Part shown: positions 5,016 through 62,260 of the stretch, piece after piece
Position numbering within the stretch: the stretch's first letter is position 1
How the letters are laid out: each line of letters opens with the position of its first letter
Assembly (NCBI RefSeq): GCF_002854065.1
Contig: NZ_CP024147.1
Length of the DNA: 64,000 bases
From: Escherichia coli
Lineage (GTDB): Bacteria; Pseudomonadota; Gammaproteobacteria; Enterobacterales; Enterobacteriaceae
Direction: 5' to 3' (one strand)
Translations under genes and position numbers: made by a program
The notes under the pieces: model-generated
What the model saw: the letters and a program-made list of their open reading frames with translations, nothing else
What the model was told of the DNA's origin: nothing
Databases searched by the model: none

Positions 5016-5279
5016 TAATTTGTCCTTTTCAGTCAGTGCAAAAGTCGAGTAAAAGGCATAACCTATCATTGTCATAGGTAAGAGCTTAGATCAGGTGATT
5101 GCCCTTTGTTTATGAGGGTGTTGTAATCCATGTCGTTGTTGCATTTGTAAGGGCAACACCTCAGCCTGCAGGCAGGCGCTGAAGATACCAAAGGGTAGTT
5201 CAGATTACACGGTCACCTGGAAAGGGGGCCATTTTACTTTTTATCGCCGCTGGCGGTGCAAAGTTCACAAAGTTGTCTT

Positions 5280-10293: not shown

Positions 10294-10341
10294 TTTTACT
10301 CCATGTCGTCGGTACTGCGAGTGTCGCAGATAAACATACCC

Positions 10342-10377
10342 AAAAGAAAACCCTCACCGTCAGGCGGCGAGGGTTTA
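10342..10377 (-). terminator. Rho-independent terminator downstream of rna
   Basis: Hairpin AACCCTC...GAGGGTT followed by a T-rich tract on the minus strand. Confidence 0.5.
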
Positions 10378-10522
10378 ACTCACATGATGATACTGACTGT
10401 TGCTCACTCTTTGAAGTGATTTGCGTCACATTCAGGGAATTCCTCAATGCAGCGCATTATGTATAAATCTTAATCGCCTTGGTTTATGGAAGACGAATTA
10501 GCGTGTTTTGTAAATCAGAGGA

Positions 10523-22880: not shown

Positions 22881-23441
22881 ATGAACGTGAGTAAATATGT
22901 CGCTATCTTTTCCTTTGTTTTTATTCAGTTAATCAGCGTTGGTAAAGCTTTTGCTAACGCAGATGAGTGGATGACAACGTTTAGAGAAAATATTGCACAA
23001 ACCTGGCAACAGCCTGAACATTATGATTTATATATTCCTGCCATCACCTGGCATGCACGTTTCGCTTACGACAAAGAAAAAACCGATCGCTATAACGAGC
23101 GACCGTGGGGTGGCGGTTTTGGCCTGTCGCGTTGGGATGAAAAAGGAAACTGGCATGGCCTGTATGCCATGGCATTTAAGGACTCGTGGAACAAATGGGA
23201 ACCGATTGCCGGATACGGATGGGAAAGTACCTGGCGACCGCTGGCGGATGAAAATTTTCATTTAGGTCTGGGATTCACCGCTGGCGTAACGGCACGTGAT
23301 AACTGGAATTACATCCCTCTCCCGGTTCTACTGCCATTGGCCTCCGTGGGTTATGGTCCAGTGACTTTTCAGATGACCTATATTCCGGGTACCTACAACA
23401 ATGGCAATGTGTACTTTGCCTGGATGCGCTTTCAGTTTTGA
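22881..23441 (+). CDS. pagP: Lipid A palmitoyltransferase (outer-membrane beta-barrel)
   Basis: ORF 22857..23441; start set at [14 protein letters not shown] for 186 aa. Confidence 0.93.
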
Positions 23442-23615
23442 GACAAATGAAGTTTTAGTAAATTCTTTAAAATCAATGAGTAAAATAATTAACATCAAAA
23501 ATAACGCGACTTTTATCACTTTTTAGTAAAGTTGCACTGGACAAAGCGTACCACAATTGGTGTACTGGTAACCGACACAGCATTTGTGTCTATTTTTCAT
23601 GTAAAGGTAATTTTG

Positions 23616-23825
23616 ATGTCTAAGATTAAAGGTAACGTTAAGTGGTTTAATGAGTCCAAAGGATTCGGTTTCATTACTCCGGAAGACGGCAGCAAAGACG
23701 TGTTCGTACACTTCTCTGCAATCCAGACTAATGGTTTTAAAACTCTTGCTGAAGGTCAGCGCGTAGAGTTCGAAATCACTAACGGTGCCAAAGGCCCTTC
23801 TGCTGCAAACGTAATCGCTCTGTAA
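23616..23825 (+). CDS. cspE: Cold-shock-domain protein CspE
   Basis: 69-aa protein [22 protein letters not shown] with RNP motifs; ATG at 23616 inside the longer track ORF. Confidence 0.95.
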
Positions 23826-23845
23826 GATACGTCAGCAAGAATTCA

Positions 23846-23874
23846 AAACCCGCTTAATCAGCGGGTTTTTTTTG
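23846..23874 (+). terminator. Rho-independent terminator downstream of cspE
   Basis: Hairpin AACCCGC-TTAATCA-GCGGGTT followed by T8. Confidence 0.75.
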
Positions 23875-48049: not shown

Positions 48050-49720
48050 TTATGGGATCTCAATGGCTAAATAAACGCTCGCCCGCCGCCTGACCTCATC
48101 GACGCGGGCCATATCGTTTGACTGCAGCGCCGCATCAAAATCGGTGATCACCCGGCCAATCTCTTCTCGCTCGTCACCCAGCGCCCGCGCCCACAACTCT
48201 TCCAGTTTGGCTTTAAAGGTACGATTGATGAGCATATCGCGCGGATAAATTTTCAATGCGGATAACCGCGTCCGACTCTCTTCAATCTGCTGCGCGCTCA
48301 ATGTTACCGGGCTGTGGTTAATCACTCTGGACTTAACGCTGCCGTCTTCCAGAAGCACGTCAACTTCAAGCAAGCCGTTGATATCATAACTAAAGCGAAT
48401 ATCAATCGACTGATAAGCTCCGGTTTTCTTCAACGGCACATCGAAGGATTCCACCAGAATGTTATTTTTAACTTTGTGGTTTTCTCCCTGATAGACGTTA
48501 ACCGTAATAGAATCCTGTTCCGGGTGCATGGTCGAGTAAGTTTCTACACGCGACACCGGTACTGTGGTGTTTCGTTCAATAATCGGCGAGAAAATGCCGG
48601 AAACGCCCTGGCGGTTAACTTCAACGCCCAACGAGTAAGGGCAAATATCAGTGAGGATCACTTCTTCAATATCTTCACTGCGTAAGCGGCAGGCGGCCTG
48701 GATTGCTGCGCCCAGCGCGACAATGGTGCTCGGATCGTAACTTTGATACGGTAATTTGCCAAACAGACGCACGGCGATTCGCTGCACCAGCGGCATTTGT
48801 GACGCGCCGCCAACCAGCACCAGACTGTCGATCTGACTCGGCTTCAGACGCGCATCGCGCAATGCCTGTTCAATCGGCACTCGCAAGCGGTTAAGCAGAG
48901 GCAACCACAAATCTTCCAGTTCGTTCTCGTAAAATTCGCACTCCAGCGTTTCTTCCTGGTACTGCCAGCGAATGTGCATTGGCAATTGATTGCTACATTT
49001 TGCCGCTTCCACACAGGCGTACAGGGCAGCCAGTTCGCTCTCGTTAAGGGCTGTTTTGGCGACTTCCGCGCGTTTTAAAACTTCATCGACCAGCATATGA
49101 GTAAAATCTTCGCCACCGAGGAAGTTATCGCCCGCTGAGGCGTGAACTTCAATCACCGGCGTGGCGTACTCAAGCACCGTAACGTCAAACGTGCCGCCAC
49201 CGAGATCAAATACCAGCGAGCGGGTGTTTTGTTGGGTATGCAGGCCATACGCCATCGCAGCTGCCGTTGGCTCATTAATCAGGCGAACTGCATTTAAACC
49301 GGCTAACTCCGCTGCTAAACGGGTATGCTTGCGTTGTTCATCGCTGAAATAAGCCGGAACAGAGATCACCACATCTTTAATCGGACGTTGCAGAAATTCT
49401 TCGGCATCTTCTTTTAATGAACGTAATACCAAAGAGGACAGTTCTGGCGCGTTAAATGTGTCGCTGCCTAACCGCCAGTTGGTATTACTGCCCATTGCAC
49501 GTTTAAATAACGCTGCCGTTTTATCCGGATGCGAAGTACGCCGTGATACAGCCGGTTTTCCGACTAAAATATGATTATTTTCATCCATGCTAATTATGGA
49601 TGGTGTTAAATATTCACCGAACTTATTTGGAATTAATTGCGCGGCACCGTCTTTCCAGACGGCAATTAAACTATTGGTAGTACCGAGATCGATACCAATG
49701 GCGAGTTCTGCATTATCCAT
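48050..49720 (-). CDS. hscC: Hsp70-family chaperone HscC (Hsc62)
   Basis: 556-aa ORF with the Hsp70 N-terminal ATPase signature IGIDLGTTNS. Confidence 0.95.
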   Translation of the reverse strand: MDNAELAIGIDLGTTNSLIAVWKDGAAQLIPNKFGEYLTPSIISMDENNHILVGKPAVSRRTSHPDKTAALFKRAMGSNTNWRLGSDTFNAPELSSLVLRSLKEDAEEFLQRPIKDVVISVPAYFSDEQRKHTRLAAELAGLNAVRLINEPTAAAMAYGLHTQQNTRSLVFDLGGGTFDVTVLEYATPVIEVHASAGDNFLGGEDFTHMLVDEVLKRAEVAKTALNESELAALYACVEAAKCSNQLPMHIRWQYQEETLECEFYENELEDLWLPLLNRLRVPIEQALRDARLKPSQIDSLVLVGGASQMPLVQRIAVRLFGKLPYQSYDPSTIVALGAAIQAACRLRSEDIEEVILTDICPYSLGVEVNRQGVSGIFSPIIERNTTVPVSRVETYSTMHPEQDSITVNVYQGENHKVKNNILVESFDVPLKKTGAYQSIDIRFSYDINGLLEVDVLLEDGSVKSRVINHSPVTLSAQQIEESRTRLSALKIYPRDMLINRTFKAKLEELWARALGDEREEIGRVITDFDAALQSNDMARVDEVRRRASVYLAIEIP

Positions 49721-49803
49721 TGCATTTATATCTTGAAAGAAAAAGAGATAAACAGATTAAGACCACCCAGGTAACGCGTGGTGATCTTAATCAATGACGT
49801 GTG

Positions 49804-50739
49804 TTAAGCGTAAAATTTCAGACGATCGGCCAGTAAATCAACAAAGCTCTGACGATCAACATCGACCATTACAGTGGCATTCGGTTTATTGCCAGTCAGA
49901 TAATAATAATCAACAACCGTCATCCCCTGGGTATATTTCCCCTGTGTTTCCACGCCAACCCAGCGCTCAACAGTGGTAAACAACTCGGGTTTCAACAGCC
50001 AGGCGATGGTGCATGGGTCATGCAGCGGTGCGCCGACAAAGCCCCATTTTTCGTCTTTATGATATTCGAGGAAGAAATCCAGCAGTTCGGCAACAATGGT
50101 TGAAACAGGGTTGCCAATCGCGCGGAAACGCTCGGTGTCCTCACCGTGAATTTGTGCTTTGTGAGTAACATCCAGACCGGCCATCACCACCGGGATCCCT
50201 GACTGGAAGACAATTTCTGCCGCTTCCGGGTCAACGTAAATATTAAATTCAGCCGCAGGCGTCCAGTTACCCAGCCCCATAGCGCCACCCATAATCACGA
50301 TACGGGCAATTTTGCTATGCAGTTCCGGATGGCTATTGAGCAGCAAGGCAACGTTAGTTTGCGGTCCGGTAGAAACAATGGTGACAGGTTCCGCACTTTC
50401 ACGCAGCGTTTTCGCCATTAGCTCTACCGCCGTACAGTTTTGCGGTGCGAACGCCGGTTCCGGTAATGCCGGGCCGTCGAGACCGCTTTCGCCGTGCACA
50501 TTGTCCGCGATAATCAACTCACGCATTAACGGTTTTACCGCGCCGCCTGCTACCGGAATATCGGTGCGATTAAGCAAGGTCAGCATACGCAGAACATTGC
50601 GTAAGGTTTTTTCTGGTGTCTGGTTTCCGGCGGAAGACGTAATTGCTTTGACATCAAGCTCTGGTGAGGCGAGGGCGAGAACTATTGCGATAGCGTCGTC
50701 ATGACCTGGGTCGCAATCTAACAGAATTGGCAGTGCCAT
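49804..50739 (-). CDS. rihA: Pyrimidine-specific ribonucleoside hydrolase
   Basis: ORF 49804..50772; start set at [18 protein letters not shown] (nucleoside-hydrolase DxDxxxDD motif) for 311 aa. Confidence 0.92.
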
Positions 50740-50856
50740 TGTTGCTCCTTGTTGTGTGCTTCTTTGCGACAAGGGTAACGCCAGGATGTAACAGATACGA
50801 GGGGCGAAACGATAAAGCGTGAGATGGCGCGCAATTGGGTATGCGCGCCAGAGTGA

Positions 50857-51582
50857 TTAATGCAGGATTTTCGCGAGGAAGTCTTTTGCGCGGTCCGATT
50901 TCGGATCATCGAAGAACGCATCTTTCGGCGAGTCTTCAACAATTTTACCCTCATCCATAAAGATCACCCGATTCGCCACTTTACGGGCAAAGCCCATTTC
51001 GTGGGTCACCACCATCATGGTCATCCCCTCGTTCGCCAGTTCCACCATCACGTCCAGCACTTCGTTGATCATCTCCGGGTCTAGTGCCGATGTGGGTTCG
51101 TCGAACAGCATCGCAATAGGATCCATACACAATGCGCGAGCAATTGCCACACGCTGCTGCTGGCCGCCGGAAAGCTGCGCCGGAAATTTATTGGCATGTG
51201 CGGAAAGTCCCACGCGCTCCAGCAATTTCAATGCTTTTTCACGAGCCGGTGCTTTATCGCGTTTAAGCACTTTCACCTGCGCTAGGGTCAGGTTTTCGAT
51301 AATCGACAGATGAGGGAACAGCTCGAAATGTTGGAATACCATCCCGACGCGAGAACGCAGCTTTGCCAGATCGGTTTTCTTGTCGTTAACCACGATACCA
51401 TCGACGGTGATTTCACCTTGCTGCACTGGTTCGAGGCCGTTGACGGTTTTAATCAGCGTTGATTTGCCGGAACCAGACGGGCCGCAAACCACCACCACTT
51501 CGCCTTTTTTCACTTCGGTTGAGCAGTCGGTCAGCACCTGAAAGTGACCATACCATTTTGAAACATTTTTCAGGGTAATCAT
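50857..51582 (-). CDS. gltL: Glutamate/aspartate ABC transporter ATP-binding protein
   Basis: 241-aa ORF with Walker A (GPSGSGKST) and the ABC signature LSGGQQQR. Confidence 0.95.
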
Positions 51583-52256
51583 TATGCTGTCCTTCTTTTC
51601 AAGTAGCTGACCAACAACGACGCGCTAAGGCTAATAACGAAATAAACAAATCCGGCAAACAGGATCATCTCAACCTGCGTACCATCACGCTCACCAATGG
51701 TTGAGGCGGTACGGAAGAAATCGGCCAGAGATAACACATACACCAGCGAGGTATCCTGGAACAGTACGATGCCCTGAGTGAGCAGCAGCGGCACCATCGC
51801 GCGGAACGCCTGCGGCAGAATAATCAGTTTCATCGACTGCCAGTGAGTCATTCCCAACGCCAGCGCGGCGCTAGACTGACCACGAGAAATACTTTGAATA
51901 CCAGCACGGATAATCTCTGAATAGTAGGCCGCTTCAAACATCGAAAACGCCACCATCGCCGAAATTAAACGGATATCATTTTTTGGCGATAATCCCAGCA
52001 CGTTTTGCAGAAAACCCGGCACGATCAGGTAAAACCACAGCAAAACCATAACTAAAGGAATCGAGCGGAATACGTTAACGTAGGCTTTGGCAAACCACGC
52101 TACGGGCGCAAAGCTGGACAAGCGCATCACCGCCAGCATGGTGCCCCACAAAATACCAATCACGACTGCCGTGACGGTGATTTTCAGCGTGATCACTAGC
52201 CCGTCGAGCAGATATGGCAGGGAAGGGACAATGGAACTCCAGTCAAACTCGTACAT
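51582..52256 (-). CDS. gltK: Glutamate/aspartate ABC transporter permease
   Basis: 224-aa membrane ORF. Confidence 0.93.
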
Positions 52257-52996
52257 TATTTGCCCCCCATGTTGCCAGGCAGGCGAACTTTACGTTCAAC
52301 CAGCGTCATCACCAGCATGATAACCGCGTTAATCAACACATACGCTAGCGTAATGGCGGTAAACGACTCCCAGGCGTGAGCCGAGTAGTCGAGCAATTTA
52401 CCCGCCTGCGCTGCCATATCTACCAGACCGATGGTCGAGGCGATGGCGGAGTTTTTCACCAGGTTCATCATCTCTGAGGTCATCGGCGGGACGATAACGC
52501 GATAAGCATTAGGCAGCAGTACGTAGCGGTAAGCCTGCGGCAGCGTCAGACCCATCGCCAGCGCGGCATTCTTCTGCCCGCGCGGCAGCGACTGAATCGC
52601 GGCGCGTACCTGTTCGCAAACGCGAGCCGCAGTAAACAGCCCCAGGCAGAGCATGGAGGAGAGGAAAAACTGAATATTTGGGTCCAGTTCCGCCTTAAAC
52701 CACATGCCGATTTTTTCCGGCAGCAGCTCCGGGATCACCAGATACCAGGTAAAGAACTGCACAATCAACGGCACGTTGCGGAACAGTTCGACATACAACG
52801 TACCCAGACCGGAGAGAAAACGGTTTGGAACGGTACGTAAAATGCCGAAAAATGAACCGACGAGGAAAGCGATAATCCAGGCGCAGATCGACAAAGCGAT
52901 CGTCACCTGAAAACCACTCCAGATCCAACCAAGATAGGTGGTGTTGCCGAACGGAGCTTGTTGTAAAAAAATACCCCAGTTCCAGTCTATAGACAT
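52256..52996 (-). CDS. gltJ: Glutamate/aspartate ABC transporter permease
   Basis: 246-aa membrane ORF. Confidence 0.93.
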
Positions 52997-53008
52997 AAAT
53001 CTACTCCA

Positions 53009-53043
53009 GAAAAAAGAGGGTAGCAGCGTTAACTGCTACCCTC
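53009..53043 (-). terminator. Intrinsic terminator/attenuator between gltI and gltJ (3' end of SroC)
   Basis: 11-bp perfect stem, 6-nt loop and a 6-U tail on the minus strand. Confidence 0.65.
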
Positions 53044-53165
53044 GAAGATTGTTACCCAGCGTATTGCGGTTTTCAGGCCCGATGGGGAACGACCATCAGG
53101 CGTATAGTCTGTCCGTGCTACGTAACAATTGAGAGGGCTGGAATTTCCGCCCCTGGTTCTTGTAA
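53009..53165 (-). ncRNA. sroC: SroC small RNA region (gltI-gltJ intercistronic, ending at an intrinsic terminator)
   Basis: Perfect 11-bp hairpin GAGGGTAGCAG-CGTTAA-CTGCTACCCTC followed by a U-run on the minus strand; the position matches the known SroC locus. The 5' end is not determinable from sequence. Confidence 0.5.
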
Positions 53166-54074
53166 TTAGTTCAGTGCCTTGTCATTCGGTTCTTTGAACA
53201 GTGCTTTCATTTCGTCTGACAGTTCGAAATTCATGTTCAGGTTTTTCGGCGGAATTGGATTTTTGAACCATTTATCAAACCATTTTTCCGCTTCACCGGA
53301 GGTCTGCACCTGAGCGATGGTGTCATCCATCAGCTTTTTGAACTGCGGATCGTCTTTACGCAACATGCAACCGTAGGCTTCCTGAGACTGCGGCTTGCCG
53401 ACGATATCCCAGTTGTCTGGTTTCTTCGCTTTCGCACGTTCACCGGCCAGCAGGGCATCATCCATCATAAAGGCAACGGCACGACCGCTTTCCAGGGTGC
53501 GGAAAGAGTCACCGTGATCTTTGGCGCTGATGATGCGCATATTCATTTTTTGCTCTTCATTCAGTTTGTTGAGCAAAACTTCAGAGGTAGTGCCGGAAGT
53601 GACGACTACGGCTTTGCCTTTCAGGTCGGCAAAATCTTTGATATCGCCGCCCTTTTTGGTCAACAGGCGCGTACCGACCACGAAAATAGTGTCAGAGAAA
53701 GCCGCCTGTTTTTGGCGTTCGACGTTGTTGGTGGTAGAACCACATTCAAAATCGAAAGTGCCGTTTTGCAGAAGAGGAATACGGTTTTGTGAGGTGATCG
53801 GAATCAGTTTCACCTGCAAGTCCGGTTTGTTGAGTTTCTTTTTCACTGCTTCAACAATGGCGTTGGAGTAATCCTGCGAATAACCCACCACTTTTTGCTG
53901 ATTGTCGTAATAAGAGAAAGGTACTGAAGATTCACGGTGACCGACGACAATCACGCCGTTTTTGGCGATTTTGTCCAGCGTACTGCCCGCTGCCGGGGCG
54001 GCGTCATCTGCCTGTGCCAGTCCTGCGGAAAGCGCAAGGGCCAGGATTGCTGTGGCAGGTTTACGTAATTGCAT
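53166..54074 (-). CDS. gltI: Glutamate/aspartate periplasmic binding protein
   Basis: ORF 53166..54149; start set at the ATG at 54074 (MQLRKPATAILALALSAGLAQA signal peptide) for 302 aa. Confidence 0.93.
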   Translation of the reverse strand: MQLRKPATAILALALSAGLAQADDAAPAAGSTLDKIAKNGVIVVGHRESSVPFSYYDNQQKVVGYSQDYSNAIVEAVKKKLNKPDLQVKLIPITSQNRIPLLQNGTFDFECGSTTNNVERQKQAAFSDTIFVVGTRLLTKKGGDIKDFADLKGKAVVVTSGTTSEVLLNKLNEEQKMNMRIISAKDHGDSFRTLESGRAVAFMMDDALLAGERAKAKKPDNWDIVGKPQSQEAYGCMLRKDDPQFKKLMDDTIAQVQTSGEAEKWFDKWFKNPIPPKNLNMNFELSDEMKALFKEPNDKALN

Positions 54075-54470
54075 ATCCAACTCCTTTATCTTCTGCGTTA
54101 AGAACGCATGGATACCCGTTGTGAGTGTTTGTGTTGTTATCGTCTGCAACTTTATTGTGCAGTGTTGTGACTGTTAGGTAACATTTAGTTTGGGTAAATG
54201 TAAAGATATTGATGTTTTATTGTTTGTTTTTGCGAGGTGCACCGCACCATTCCGAAGCAAAATTCTTAAAATGCACTCTTTTGGTGCTACCGGTGGATTG
54301 CTGTGGTGCAACCGGGTTGTACTGATGCTGGTTAAAGCTTTGCCTGGTATAACAAAGCAATAGATGTGCCAAAGTTGGATAGGAGAATATTGTTATCCGG
54401 ATAATGCACTGATGCCGCATCCGGTGAGCGTGCCGAAATATGGGATGTATTCCGGCACGATAAGAAGGGA

Positions 54471-56009
54471 TTATTTACGTCGCTGACGCAGACTCATCAA
54501 CACAGCAGCAAAACCAAACAGTGCCGTCAGCACCCACAGCGGCCAGTTGCCGGTACGTGCGTATGGTGTGAGTCCGGTGGTCGGCGTCACGTTAGTGGTT
54601 AACACCTCGCGGGTGAATTGCGGGATCATCGCCTGAATCTCACCCTGCGGGCCAATCACCGCCGTAATGCCGTTGTTGGTGCTGCGCAACAGTGGGCGCG
54701 CCAGCTCCAGCGCACGCATTCGCGCCATCTGGAAGTGCTGCCATGGACCAATAGACTTACCAAACCACGCATCGTTGGAGATAGTCAGCAGATAGTCGGT
54801 ATCCGGGCGGAAGTTATCGCGCACTTGCTCGCCGAGAATGATCTCGTAGCAAATAGCCGCAGTAAGCTCAATACCATTTGCCGACAGCGGCGGCTGGATA
54901 TATGGCCCACGGCTGAACGACGACATCGGCAGATCAAAGAACGGTGCTAACGGACGCAGAATCGACTCCAGCGGGACAAACTCGCCAAACGGCACCAGAT
55001 GGTTTTTGTTATAACGATCGGCTGATTCGTAGCTGTACGGTGCACCTTTACCCAGCGTGATGATGGTGTTGTAGGTATCGTAACGGTTCTGCTTATTAAG
55101 ACGCGCGTCAACAATCCCGGTCACCAGCGTACTCCCTTTATCACGCAACTCACCGTCCAGTGCTTTGAGGAACGGTTGCTGATTAATTTCCAGATCGGTT
55201 ATCGCCGACTCCGGCCAGATAATCAACGATGATTTGCCCATCAGTGGTGCCGTTGCGTTGTAGTAAATCTTCAGCGTATTAAGAAGCTGGCCTTCGTCCC
55301 ATTTCAGCGATTGCGGAATATCGCCCTGAACCATCGAAACCTGAATGGTTTTCTCCGGTTGTGGGGTAAACCACTGGATGTAACGCAGCGGGAAGGGAAG
55401 GGCAAACAGCACGACGGCCACCACCAGCGGACGCCAGTTGCGTTTGACTAACGCCAGTGCCAGCAGGCCGCTAACCATCATCAGCAGGAAGTTAATGGCT
55501 TCCACGCCCATTAGCGGTGCCAGCCCTTTTAACGGGCCATCAATCTGGCTATAGCCGAACTGTAACCACGGGAAGCCTGTCAGTACCCAACCGCGCAGAA
55601 ACTCGGTCACTTGCCAGAGAGCAGGGGCGGCAATCGCCACGCGCAGCCAGGTGGTTTTCGGCCACAGGCGCGACAGCACGCCAGCAAACAGTCCGGTATA
55701 CAGCGACAAATACGCTGCCAGCAGCACCACCAGGAAGATGTTAACCGGGCCAGGCATTCCGCCAAAGGTCGCGATGCTGACATAGACCCAGTTAATACCG
55801 CTGCCAAAGAGGCCAAATCCCCAGCAAAAGCCAATAGCGGCAGACTGGAGTGGACGGCGGTTAAAGGTCAACGCCTGAAGCCCCATCAGCGAAATAATCG
55901 CCGCAGGCCAGACGTCGTAAGGAGAGAAGGCCAGCGTTCCGCAGGCACCGCATAATAACGCCAGCAGCAGGCGAATGCGCTGGCGTTCAATTAATGAGGC
56001 AAAAGCCAT
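54471..56009 (-). CDS. lnt: Apolipoprotein N-acyltransferase
   Basis: 512-aa ORF with N-terminal TM helices and a CN-hydrolase domain. Confidence 0.95.
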
Positions 56010-56033
56010 GTAGTTATCTATCCAGTTTCGGTT

Positions 56034-56912
56034 TTATTCATCCAGCTTTGGCTGGGGTGAGTCATCCGGGATTTTGACATGAACCTGAATAATACGCCGA
56101 CTATCGGCCATCGCCACTTTGAACTGGTAACCGTCGATGTCGATGGTTTCGCCACGCGCCGGAAGATGCCCAAATGCCTGCATCACCAGACCACCGATAG
56201 TGTCGACTTCTTCATCGCTAAAGTGGGTGCCGAACGCTTCGTTGAAGTCTTCAATGGAAGCCAGCGCGCGCACGGTCCAGGTATGACGACTCAGCTGACG
56301 GAAGTCGATATCATCTTCTTCGTCATATTCGTCTTCAATCTCACCAACAATCAGTTCCAGGATGTCTTCAATGGTCACCAGACCGGAAACCCCACCGAAT
56401 TCGTCAATGACGATCGCCATGTGGTAACGCTGAGAGCGAAACTCTTTCAGCATCCGGTCTACGCGCTTACTTTCAGGAACGACAACCGCCTGACGTAACA
56501 CTTTGTCCATGCTGAAGGCTTCAGCATCGCTGCGCATAAACGGCAGCAAGTCTTTCGCCATCAGAATCCCTTCAATGTGATCTTTGTCTTCGCTAATCAC
56601 CGGGAAACGTGAGTGGGCGGACTCGATGATGACATCAAGGCATTCGTCCAGCGTCTGGTTGCGTTTCAGGGTAATCATCTGGGAGCGAGGGATCATGATG
56701 TCGCGGACGCGTTGGTCTGCGATGTCCATCACCCCTTCGAGCATATCGCGCGTATCTTCGTCGATAAGGTCGTTCTGCCCGGAATCACGGATCAGCGCCA
56801 GCAGTTCGTCACGGTTTTTCGGTTCACCGTGGAAAAGTTGGCTGAGTAACAGGGAGAAAAATCCCTTCTTGTTGCTTATCGTGTCACTACTGTGTGAATT
56901 GTCGTCGCTCAT
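56034..56912 (-). CDS. corC: CorC/HlyC-family Mg/Co efflux-associated protein (CBS domains)
   Basis: 292-aa ORF. Confidence 0.93.
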
Positions 56913-61557: not shown

Positions 61558-61632
61558 TGGCTGGGGTACGAGGATTCGAACCTCGGAATGCCGGAATCAG
61601 AATCCGGTGCCTTACCGCTTGGCGATACCCCA
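61558..61632 (-). tRNA. glnX: tRNA-Gln (anticodon CUG)
   Basis: 75-nt reverse complement of the tRNA-Gln sequence, including the CCA end; anticodon loop ATTCTGATT. Confidence 0.95.
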
Positions 61633-61669
61633 ACTGGGTGCACTTACAAGGTAAGCGTCTTGAATAAAT

Positions 61670-61744
61670 TGGCTGGGGTACGAGGATTCGAACCTCGGAA
61701 TGCCGGAATCAGAATCCGGTGCCTTACCGCTTGGCGATACCCCA
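61670..61744 (-). tRNA. glnV: tRNA-Gln (anticodon CUG)
   Basis: Identical copy of the 61558-61632 sequence. Confidence 0.95.
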
Positions 61745-61791
61745 ACAAATTGGTTTTGAATTTGCCGAACATATTCGACACATTCAGAATT

Positions 61792-61868
61792 TGGTGGCTA
61801 CGACGGGATTCGAACCTGTGACCCCATCATTATGAGTGATGTGCTCTAACCAACTGAGCTACGTAGCC
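61792..61868 (-). tRNA. metU: tRNA-Met (elongator, anticodon CAU)
   Basis: 77-nt reverse complement of elongator tRNA-Met, with CCA. Confidence 0.95.
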
Positions 61869-61883
61869 AGATTGTTTCTTCGA

Positions 61884-61958
61884 TGGCTGGGGTACCTGGA
61901 TTCGAACCAGGGAATGCCGGTATCAAAAACCGGTGCCTTACCGCTTGGCGATACCCCA
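61884..61958 (-). tRNA. glnW: tRNA-Gln (anticodon UUG)
   Basis: 75-nt tRNA-Gln with anticodon loop TTTTTGATA. Confidence 0.95.
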
Positions 61959-61992
61959 ATAACCGGGCGGTGAACCGCTTACTCGAAGAAGA

Positions 61993-62067
61993 TGGCTGGG
62001 GTACCTGGATTCGAACCAGGGAATGCCGGTATCAAAAACCGGTGCCTTACCGCTTGGCGATACCCCA
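61993..62067 (-). tRNA. glnU: tRNA-Gln (anticodon UUG)
   Basis: Identical copy of the 61884-61958 sequence. Confidence 0.95.
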
Positions 62068-62090
62068 TCCGTACAACGCTTTCTGGTGAA

Positions 62091-62175
62091 TGGTGCGGGA
62101 GGCGAGACTTGAACTCGCACACCTTGCGGCGCCAGAACCTAAATCTGGTGCGTCTACCAATTTCGCCACTCCCGC
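62091..62175 (-). tRNA. leuW: tRNA-Leu (anticodon UAG)
   Basis: 85-nt type-II tRNA with a long variable arm, with CCA. Confidence 0.93.
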
Positions 62176-62183
62176 AAAAAAGA

Positions 62184-62260
62184 TGGTGGCTACGACGGGA
62201 TTCGAACCTGTGACCCCATCATTATGAGTGATGTGCTCTAACCAACTGAGCTACGTAGCC
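62184..62260 (-). tRNA. metT: tRNA-Met (elongator, anticodon CAU)
   Basis: Identical to the metU copy. Confidence 0.95.

Follow-up and report, generated by a model that had tools for sequence, protein, structure and literature searches.

The window analyzed here is a 64,000-nt stretch of an Escherichia coli genome (contig NZ_CP024147.1). Its minus strand carries the genes gltI, gltJ, gltK, and gltL in this order (Table 1). RefSeq gives the same names at the identical locus, and profile searches identify the products: GltI matches NCBIfam NF008063 along profile positions 1-302 with 667.6 bits (cut-off 375), and GltK, encoded by the third gene of the operon, scores 479 bits against its NCBIfam model. 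The gene upstream of gltI is lnt, also assigned by NCBIfam. Consecutive genes overlap by 1 nt at the gltJ/gltK and gltK/gltL junctions. A spacer of 169 nt runs from the end of gltI (stop codon 53168..53166) to the start of gltJ (ATG at 52996). This spacer, 52997-53165, is exactly the interval in which the original prediction, made from the bare sequence, had placed an RNA hairpin.

Table 1. Features of the gltI-sroC-gltJ locus, in window coordinates
Feature	Position	Strand	Description and basis
gltI	53166..54074	-	periplasmic glutamate/aspartate-binding protein, 302 aa; host mRNA of SroC; NCBIfam NF008063 and RefSeq annotation
gltJ-gltK-gltL	50857..52996	-	two permeases and ATPase; open reading frames, NCBIfam, RefSeq
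SroC small RNA, 163 nt	53008..53170	-	full-length match to Rfam RF00369; identity to K-12 b4763; fold energy
Stem-loop 1 (SroC nt 18-37)	53134..53153	-	minimum free energy fold; helix 1 with 87.4% of alignment cells paired and 2 pairs with double changes
Rare allele, SroC nt 41: A (G in K-12)	53130	-	comparison with K-12, alignment, 57-mer counts, folds
Stem-loop 2 (SroC nt 42-123)	53048..53129	-	minimum free energy fold; BS1 in an internal loop, BS2 at the tip
GcvB site BS1 (SroC nt 57-64, GGACAGAC)	53107..53114	-	perfect 8-nt complement of E. coli GcvB 156-163
GcvB site BS2 (SroC nt 79-85, UCGUUCC)	53086..53092	-	perfect 7-nt complement of GcvB 13-19; apical loop of stem-loop 2
Terminator hairpin	53016..53043	-	11 Watson-Crick pairs and a U-G closing pair, UAAC loop; sequence, fold, terminator scan
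Terminator U6 tail	53010..53015	-	directly after the stem; sequence; K-12 3' end 686683(-) corresponds to 53010
gltJ Shine-Dalgarno GGAG	53004..53007	-	2 nt past the U-run; conserved in the alignment
CA-rich tract in the gltI 5' UTR	54118..54138	-	target of the GU-rich R1 region of GcvB; predicted duplex energy

The locus is nearly universal in the species. A 401-nt stretch around the spacer, which contains the gltI-sroC-gltJ junction, is present in 5421 of the 5426 complete E. coli genomes, with 100% identity in strains 100416 and CUWW06; the remaining 5 of the 5426 gave no match. A few E. coli genomes carry the junction in two copies, and two copies are plasmid-borne. Upstream of gltI, the spacer to lnt (54075-54470, about 396 nt) is free of the IS5 element (IS5D, insH3) that lies between the two genes in K-12 MG1655, upstream of the gltI promoter region (K-12 sequence L002:4749-6343). 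An open reading frame of 64 codons on the plus strand (52938..53132), antisense to SroC and to the start of gltJ, was discarded as spurious, as nothing supports it.

In a scan of the whole window, the Rfam covariance model RF00369 (sroC) matched the minus strand from 53170 to 53008 over its full length (model positions 1-163 of 163) with 168.4 bits (gathering score 45, E = 2.6e-35). In K-12 MG1655, the corresponding site between gltI and gltJ is annotated as the ncRNA gene sroC (b4763, 163 nt, 686681..686843), and the two RNAs are identical at 162 of 163 positions; the one difference is G41A. These results confirm the SroC identity that the original prediction had proposed together with a search against this Rfam family, and the length of the match agrees with the minus-strand RNA of roughly 160 nt expected there. 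The prediction had also described the element as intercistronic. The location in the spacer holds, but the RNA is not purely intergenic, since its 5' end (53170) lies inside gltI and it shares the last 5 nt of this gene. The same overlap is found in K-12. The 3' end falls just past the U-run.

The PGAP-annotated RefSeq record NZ_CM128593.1 contains no sroC feature. The RefSeq hit tables list gltI and gltJ alone under the 401-nt match and "none" under a 57-nt match. The missing sroC entries in PGAP records are an annotation gap and no evidence of absence; as the record we checked illustrates, sroC can be overlooked by automated annotation. SroC was discovered in 2003, its mechanism was resolved in 2015, and it has an Rfam family of its own. 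SroC with its leaky terminator is therefore an already known, ordinary feature. Its recovery here has little value as a discovery and is useful as a calibration, in that a small RNA inside an operon was correctly recognized from raw sequence, together with its 3' end and function.

The end of the spacer reads GAGGGUAGCAG-UUAACG-CUGCUACCCUC followed by UUUUUU. The two arms (53043..53033 and 53026..53016 on the minus strand) form 11 perfect Watson-Crick pairs, so that the perfect 11-bp stem with a U6 tail just upstream of gltJ is present as first described. ViennaRNA adds a closing U-G pair, giving 12 pairs, 7 of them G-C, and a UAAC loop. The element combines a G+C-rich hairpin with a U-run immediately 3' of it, as expected of an intrinsic terminator. 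Its predicted folding energy of -22.7 kcal/mol compares with -8.0 +/- 2.4 kcal/mol for 200 dinucleotide shuffles (z = -6.1), none of which folds as well, and it ranks first among the terminator-like sites in a 7-kb scan (49500-56500). Only 19 nt separate the end of the hairpin from the gltJ ATG. Judging from the literature on Hfq binding, the U6 tail would be the expected Hfq-binding 3' end of the RNA.

The K-12 sequence is identical to the window across this hairpin, and published Term-seq data from K-12 (Adams et al. 2021, PMC7815308, supplementary files 1 and 3) place 3' ends at 686683(-) and 686689(-). In the window, these ends fall on the final U of the tail (53010) and on the final base of the stem (53016). 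These discrete ends lie close to the 3' end that had been anticipated at about 53009. The same study assigns the site an intrinsic terminator score of 3.71 (threshold 3.0), and the coverage in 800-nt windows in the absence of bicyclomycin is 102 upstream and 82 downstream (PMC7815308), values which fit intrinsic and incomplete termination, with steady-state coverage being a rough guide to efficiency. Miyakoshi et al. (2015, PMC4474525) described how a single promoter gives rise to the full-length gltIJKL mRNA and to a short gltI mRNA by way of "a leaky Rho-independent terminator". Their account includes the point, raised in the original prediction, that partial termination favors the binding protein over the permeases. 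Several features of the window are consistent with read-through into gltJKL: the minus strand of 49500-56500 has no sigma-70-like promoter site for either SroC or gltJ, the gltJ Shine-Dalgarno sequence follows the U-run after 2 nt, and the downstream genes are joined by 1-nt overlaps. Expression of gltJKL would depend entirely on read-through transcripts.

The same hairpin might merely stabilize the mRNA between the two cistrons by blocking 3'-to-5' exonucleases after an endonucleolytic cut in the full operon transcript, with no termination at all. REP-type elements in other ABC-transporter operons have been described in such a role, and the second K-12 3' end, at the last base of the stem, resembles the product of exonuclease trimming up to a hairpin. 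The main 3' end lies at the last U, however, the intrinsic terminator score exceeds its threshold, and the stem is directly followed by a U-run of six residues (eight in most genera). The authors of PMC4474525 also contrasted this model explicitly. We consider it very improbable that the hairpin acts in this way alone. Stabilization and termination are not mutually exclusive, and the end equivalent to 53016, at the foot of the stem, points to a degree of exonuclease trimming in addition to termination. Finally, we give practically no credence to the idea that the 3' ends stem from Rho-dependent termination or polarity without an intrinsic terminator: Rho is frequently active inside operons, and nothing specific to this site favors it. 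In K-12, the SroC 3' end has a Rho score of 1.10 and is rated "No" for a significant Rho termination region (PMC7815308), and the ratio of downstream to upstream coverage is not raised by bicyclomycin (82/102 without and 294/333 with the drug).

Leaky intrinsic termination accounts for the 3' end of SroC. The formation of the RNA from the gltI message has been studied in Salmonella, where SroC is an Hfq-bound fragment of the gltI mRNA (Miyakoshi, Chao and Vogel, EMBO J 2015, PMC4474525). Its production from gltI-sroC requires RNase E and the 5'-monophosphate sensor of this enzyme, and the processing was reproduced in vitro with Hfq (PMC4474525). In E. coli, SroC has been listed among preferentially stabilized mRNA segments (PMC6156199). 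Some 3'-UTR small RNAs, such as DapZ or MicL, are transcribed from promoters of their own, and one could imagine the same for SroC with a promoter in the 3' end of gltI; the requirement for RNase E and the empty promoter scan reduce the probability of this route to almost nil. The sequence of the RNase E cleavage site at the SroC 5' end is identical to that of K-12. By analogy with Salmonella, the picture of a hairpin-defined RNA should be refined by a second step, namely an RNase E cut that would generate the 5' end.

The complete 163-nt RNA is predicted to fold with -62.7 kcal/mol (z = -5.7) into three elements: the short stem-loop 1, stem-loop 2, which is long and interrupted, and the terminator. 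Homologues were collected by a pattern scan of 100,044 species genomes, which returned 97 stretches. Of these, 58 are true homologues, all from Enterobacteriaceae; the other stretches (about 39) were dropped as chance matches in unrelated phyla with no similarity outside the 17-mer. The alignment comprises 52 homologues and the window, that is 53 Enterobacteriaceae sequences. The structure derived from the window is paired in 90.9% of the alignment cells and contains 15 pairs with double changes. The number of double-change cells is 152, as compared to 53 +/- 6 in column shuffles, and none of 500 shuffles reached this value. In a control with the 3' partners slid by 1-3 columns, pairing fell to 40-51%. 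Stem-loop 2 has compensatory changes at 6 of 9 pairs of the apical helix (97.1% of cells paired) and at 6 of 12 pairs of the basal helix. Both this apical helix and the terminator were recovered independently by RNAalifold. SroC therefore has a conserved secondary structure made of the two stem-loops and the terminator.

The terminator helix (helix 6) is paired in 98.9% of the alignment cells. Its lower stem, GGGUAG/CUACCC, is invariant in 53 of 53 sequences, and the T-run does not vary either. Because of this invariance, covariation speaks neither for nor against the lower stem. The upper stem varies by insertions, with 10-12 pairs in Escherichia and Kluyvera and 6-7 in most other genera. The greater length of the Escherichia terminator stem (11-12 pairs) relative to those of Salmonella, Citrobacter, Enterobacter, and Klebsiella (6-7 pairs) comes from additional bases at its top. 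The tail is U8 in most genera and U6 in the window.

Two kinds of insertions were seen among the homologues. In Citrobacter braakii (L028:2020-2146), in L097 and L090 (Phytobacter), and in Kosakonia sp. S29 (L053), about 125 nt are inserted right after the gltI stop codon, at the 5' end of SroC. This insert resembles a dispersed intergenic repeat with about 79% identity, a median of 3 copies per E. coli genome, and no annotated feature; it has the look of an ERIC/IRU element. It would alter the 5' part of SroC or its processing in those species. In two Siccibacter sequences (L051:11866-12130 and L016:3477-3739), an insert of about 80 nt separates the apical from the basal stem on the 3' side of stem-loop 2, with both GcvB sites and the terminator kept.

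In Salmonella, SroC pairs with the small RNA GcvB at two sites of 7-8 nt that lie 14 nt apart in SroC, and the compensatory mutations SroC C63G/C87G and GcvB G160C/G14C restore regulation (PMC4474525). Deletion of sroC extends GcvB's half-life from 1.7 min to more than 15 min (PMC4474525). The window RNA contains both sites as perfect complements of E. coli GcvB (BS1 and BS2, Table 1). In BS1, SroC C60 faces GcvB G160, as does C63 in the Salmonella pair C63/G160, and in BS2, C84 faces G14, as in Salmonella C87/G14. The gap between the two sites is 14 nt, as published, and all contacts match after a numbering offset of 3 nt. BS2 (GGTCGTTCCCC) lies outside the search pattern and is invariant in 53 of 53 sequences. 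The invariance of BS1 is partly forced, since the search pattern contained it.

Pairing was assessed by exact-complement searches and local duplexes, both for SroC and for the gltI 5' UTR with GcvB. RNAduplex calculations on the full-length RNAs were set aside as uninformative in both cases, as they force one long, unrealistic duplex. SroC and GcvB share 6 complementary 7-mers where 1.9 are expected (p about 0.04), which by itself is weakly above chance. The predicted pairing is argued from the register match to the published contacts, not from this statistic. The SroC terminator (53016-53043) also resembles a hairpin inside E. coli GcvB (nt 114-128, sequence L003), GGUAGCAAAGCUACC followed by U6. 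The stem GGUAGC/GCUACC is common to both RNAs, the arms of one hairpin being complementary to the opposite arms of the other. This likeness may be coincidental.

The gene of the partner RNA, gcvB, was found in 5425 of 5426 E. coli genomes. RIL-seq in E. coli showed that GcvB-SroC chimeras account for 70% of the GcvB interactions in stationary phase (PMC5145812), and the E. coli homologues are equally functional according to PMC4474525. The role as a sponge of GcvB that was assigned to this element at the outset thus draws on experiments in Salmonella, on the stated functionality of the E. coli homologues, and on an RNA pair captured in E. coli itself. The host mRNA is a candidate target as well. 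A "CA" target site for GcvB in the gltI 5' UTR is mentioned in PMC4474525, and the CA-rich tract in the window gives a predicted duplex with GcvB 56-95 of -43.0 kcal/mol, compared to -21.0 +/- 3.9 kcal/mol in 500 shuffles. For MgrR, a reported second sponge target of SroC, the only complementarity of at least 8 nt involves the 3' arm of MgrR's own terminator (SroC 98-105). We rejected this site because the sole match falls in the MgrR terminator arm and SroC 98-105 is deleted in Kosakonia and Enterobacter. For this window, membership in the SroC family, the fold, the hairpin, the intact pairing sites, and their conservation are established.

The single base that distinguishes the window from K-12 is a rare allele. 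All 52 other aligned Enterobacteriaceae sequences have G at SroC nt 41, and an exact 57-mer with A41 occurs in 3 of 5421 E. coli genomes (100416, CUWW06, and GF4-3). The exchange removes the predicted G41-C124 pair at the foot of stem-loop 2 and costs 3.6 kcal/mol (-62.7 vs -66.3 kcal/mol). The Rfam model contains a basal helix, UCUCG/CGAGG, which overlaps the foot of the terminator 5' arm. This helix is predicted only in nascent RNAs of 130-140 nt, before the 3' arm of the terminator is made. In mature SroC its probability is about zero, with the terminator favored by about 14-18 kcal/mol, and we rejected it for the mature RNA while keeping it as a possible transient. It is paired in 96% of the cells and shows no convincing covariation (1 cell; 90 of 500 shuffles equal this value). 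In more than ten genera, almost no variation is seen at about 28 positions near the terminator (AAUCUUCGAGGGUAG...GCUACCC) or in UCUCGAUUG upstream of it; wobble positions close by vary freely, as does the apical stem of stem-loop 2. It is conceivable, though in our estimate unlikely, that the terminator is regulated and not simply leaky, and that UCUCG/CGAGG may serve as a weak anti-terminator tuned by some factor or condition. Miyakoshi et al. (PMC4474525) raised tuned termination as a possibility, without testing it.

In its locus, strand, 163-nt length, fold, terminator, and GcvB sites, the RNA of the window is the same as the known SroC (RF00369; b4763 in K-12; SroC in Salmonella). Like SdhX, NarS, MalH, and OppZ, SroC is cut by RNase E from the 3' end of an mRNA, shares the intrinsic terminator of its host, and is bound by Hfq (PMC9438474). 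In contrast to these RNAs, its terminator is internal, located after the first gene of the operon and not at the operon end, and its main target is a small RNA rather than an mRNA. The trap for ChiX in the chbBC intergenic region resembles SroC: it too derives from an mRNA, lies inside an operon, and pairs with a small RNA that depends on Hfq, bringing about the decay of this RNA. The routes of decay differ: ChiX is lost through its 3' terminator region and PNPase, and GcvB through RNase E after two-site pairing with SroC (PMC4474525).

Other parts of the window carry further RNA features. Seven tRNA genes lie on the minus strand at 61558-62260, namely Gln(CTG) twice, Met(CAT), Gln(TTG) twice, Leu(TAG), and Met(CAT). 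The rnk leader (10339-10447, minus strand) is a full-length Rfam match with 124.9 bits. A borderline STnc70 match (5149-5242, plus strand) scores 44.1 bits against a threshold of 40 and covers 94 nt on a model of 149 positions. The Rfam model "cspA thermoregulator" matches a cold-shock protein gene across its leader and coding region (23431-23873, plus strand) with 127.6 bits (threshold 78). Judging from its protein end, the open reading frame presumably encodes CspE rather than CspA, so that the match stems from paralogy and is no evidence for a thermosensor.

Together, these observations make us highly confident that the locus is E. coli sroC, with a leaky intrinsic terminator and an RNA that would be cut from the gltI mRNA and act as a sponge of GcvB, function in this particular strain being inferred. 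What is stated on termination and its independence of Rho, on processing by RNase E, on the need for Hfq, and on the decay of GcvB comes from experiments in Salmonella and E. coli K-12 and would apply here by analogy. Polymerases starting at the single gltI promoter would meet the intrinsic terminator in the gltI-gltJ spacer. A fraction would terminate and yield a monocistronic gltI mRNA, and the remainder would read through and yield the gltIJKL mRNA. This partition would supply the binding protein in excess over the membrane and ATPase subunits. Hfq-guided, 5'-end-dependent decay of the short gltI mRNA by RNase E would halt at 53170 and leave a stable SroC of 163 nt. With BS1 and BS2, SroC would then pair with two distant parts of GcvB and open this RNA to RNase E. 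Loss of GcvB would derepress many mRNAs for amino-acid transport and metabolism. Because gltI itself, with the CA-rich GcvB site in its 5' UTR, would be among these mRNAs, a feedback loop would be closed.

Should the terminator indeed be regulated, the anti-terminator helix would set the ratio of GltI to GltJKL as well as the release of SroC, and therefore the level of GcvB. The G41A allele, which weakens exactly the UCUCG/CGAGG helix, would in that case represent natural variation in termination. The leakiness of this terminator would link the stoichiometry of the transporter to the GcvB regulon.
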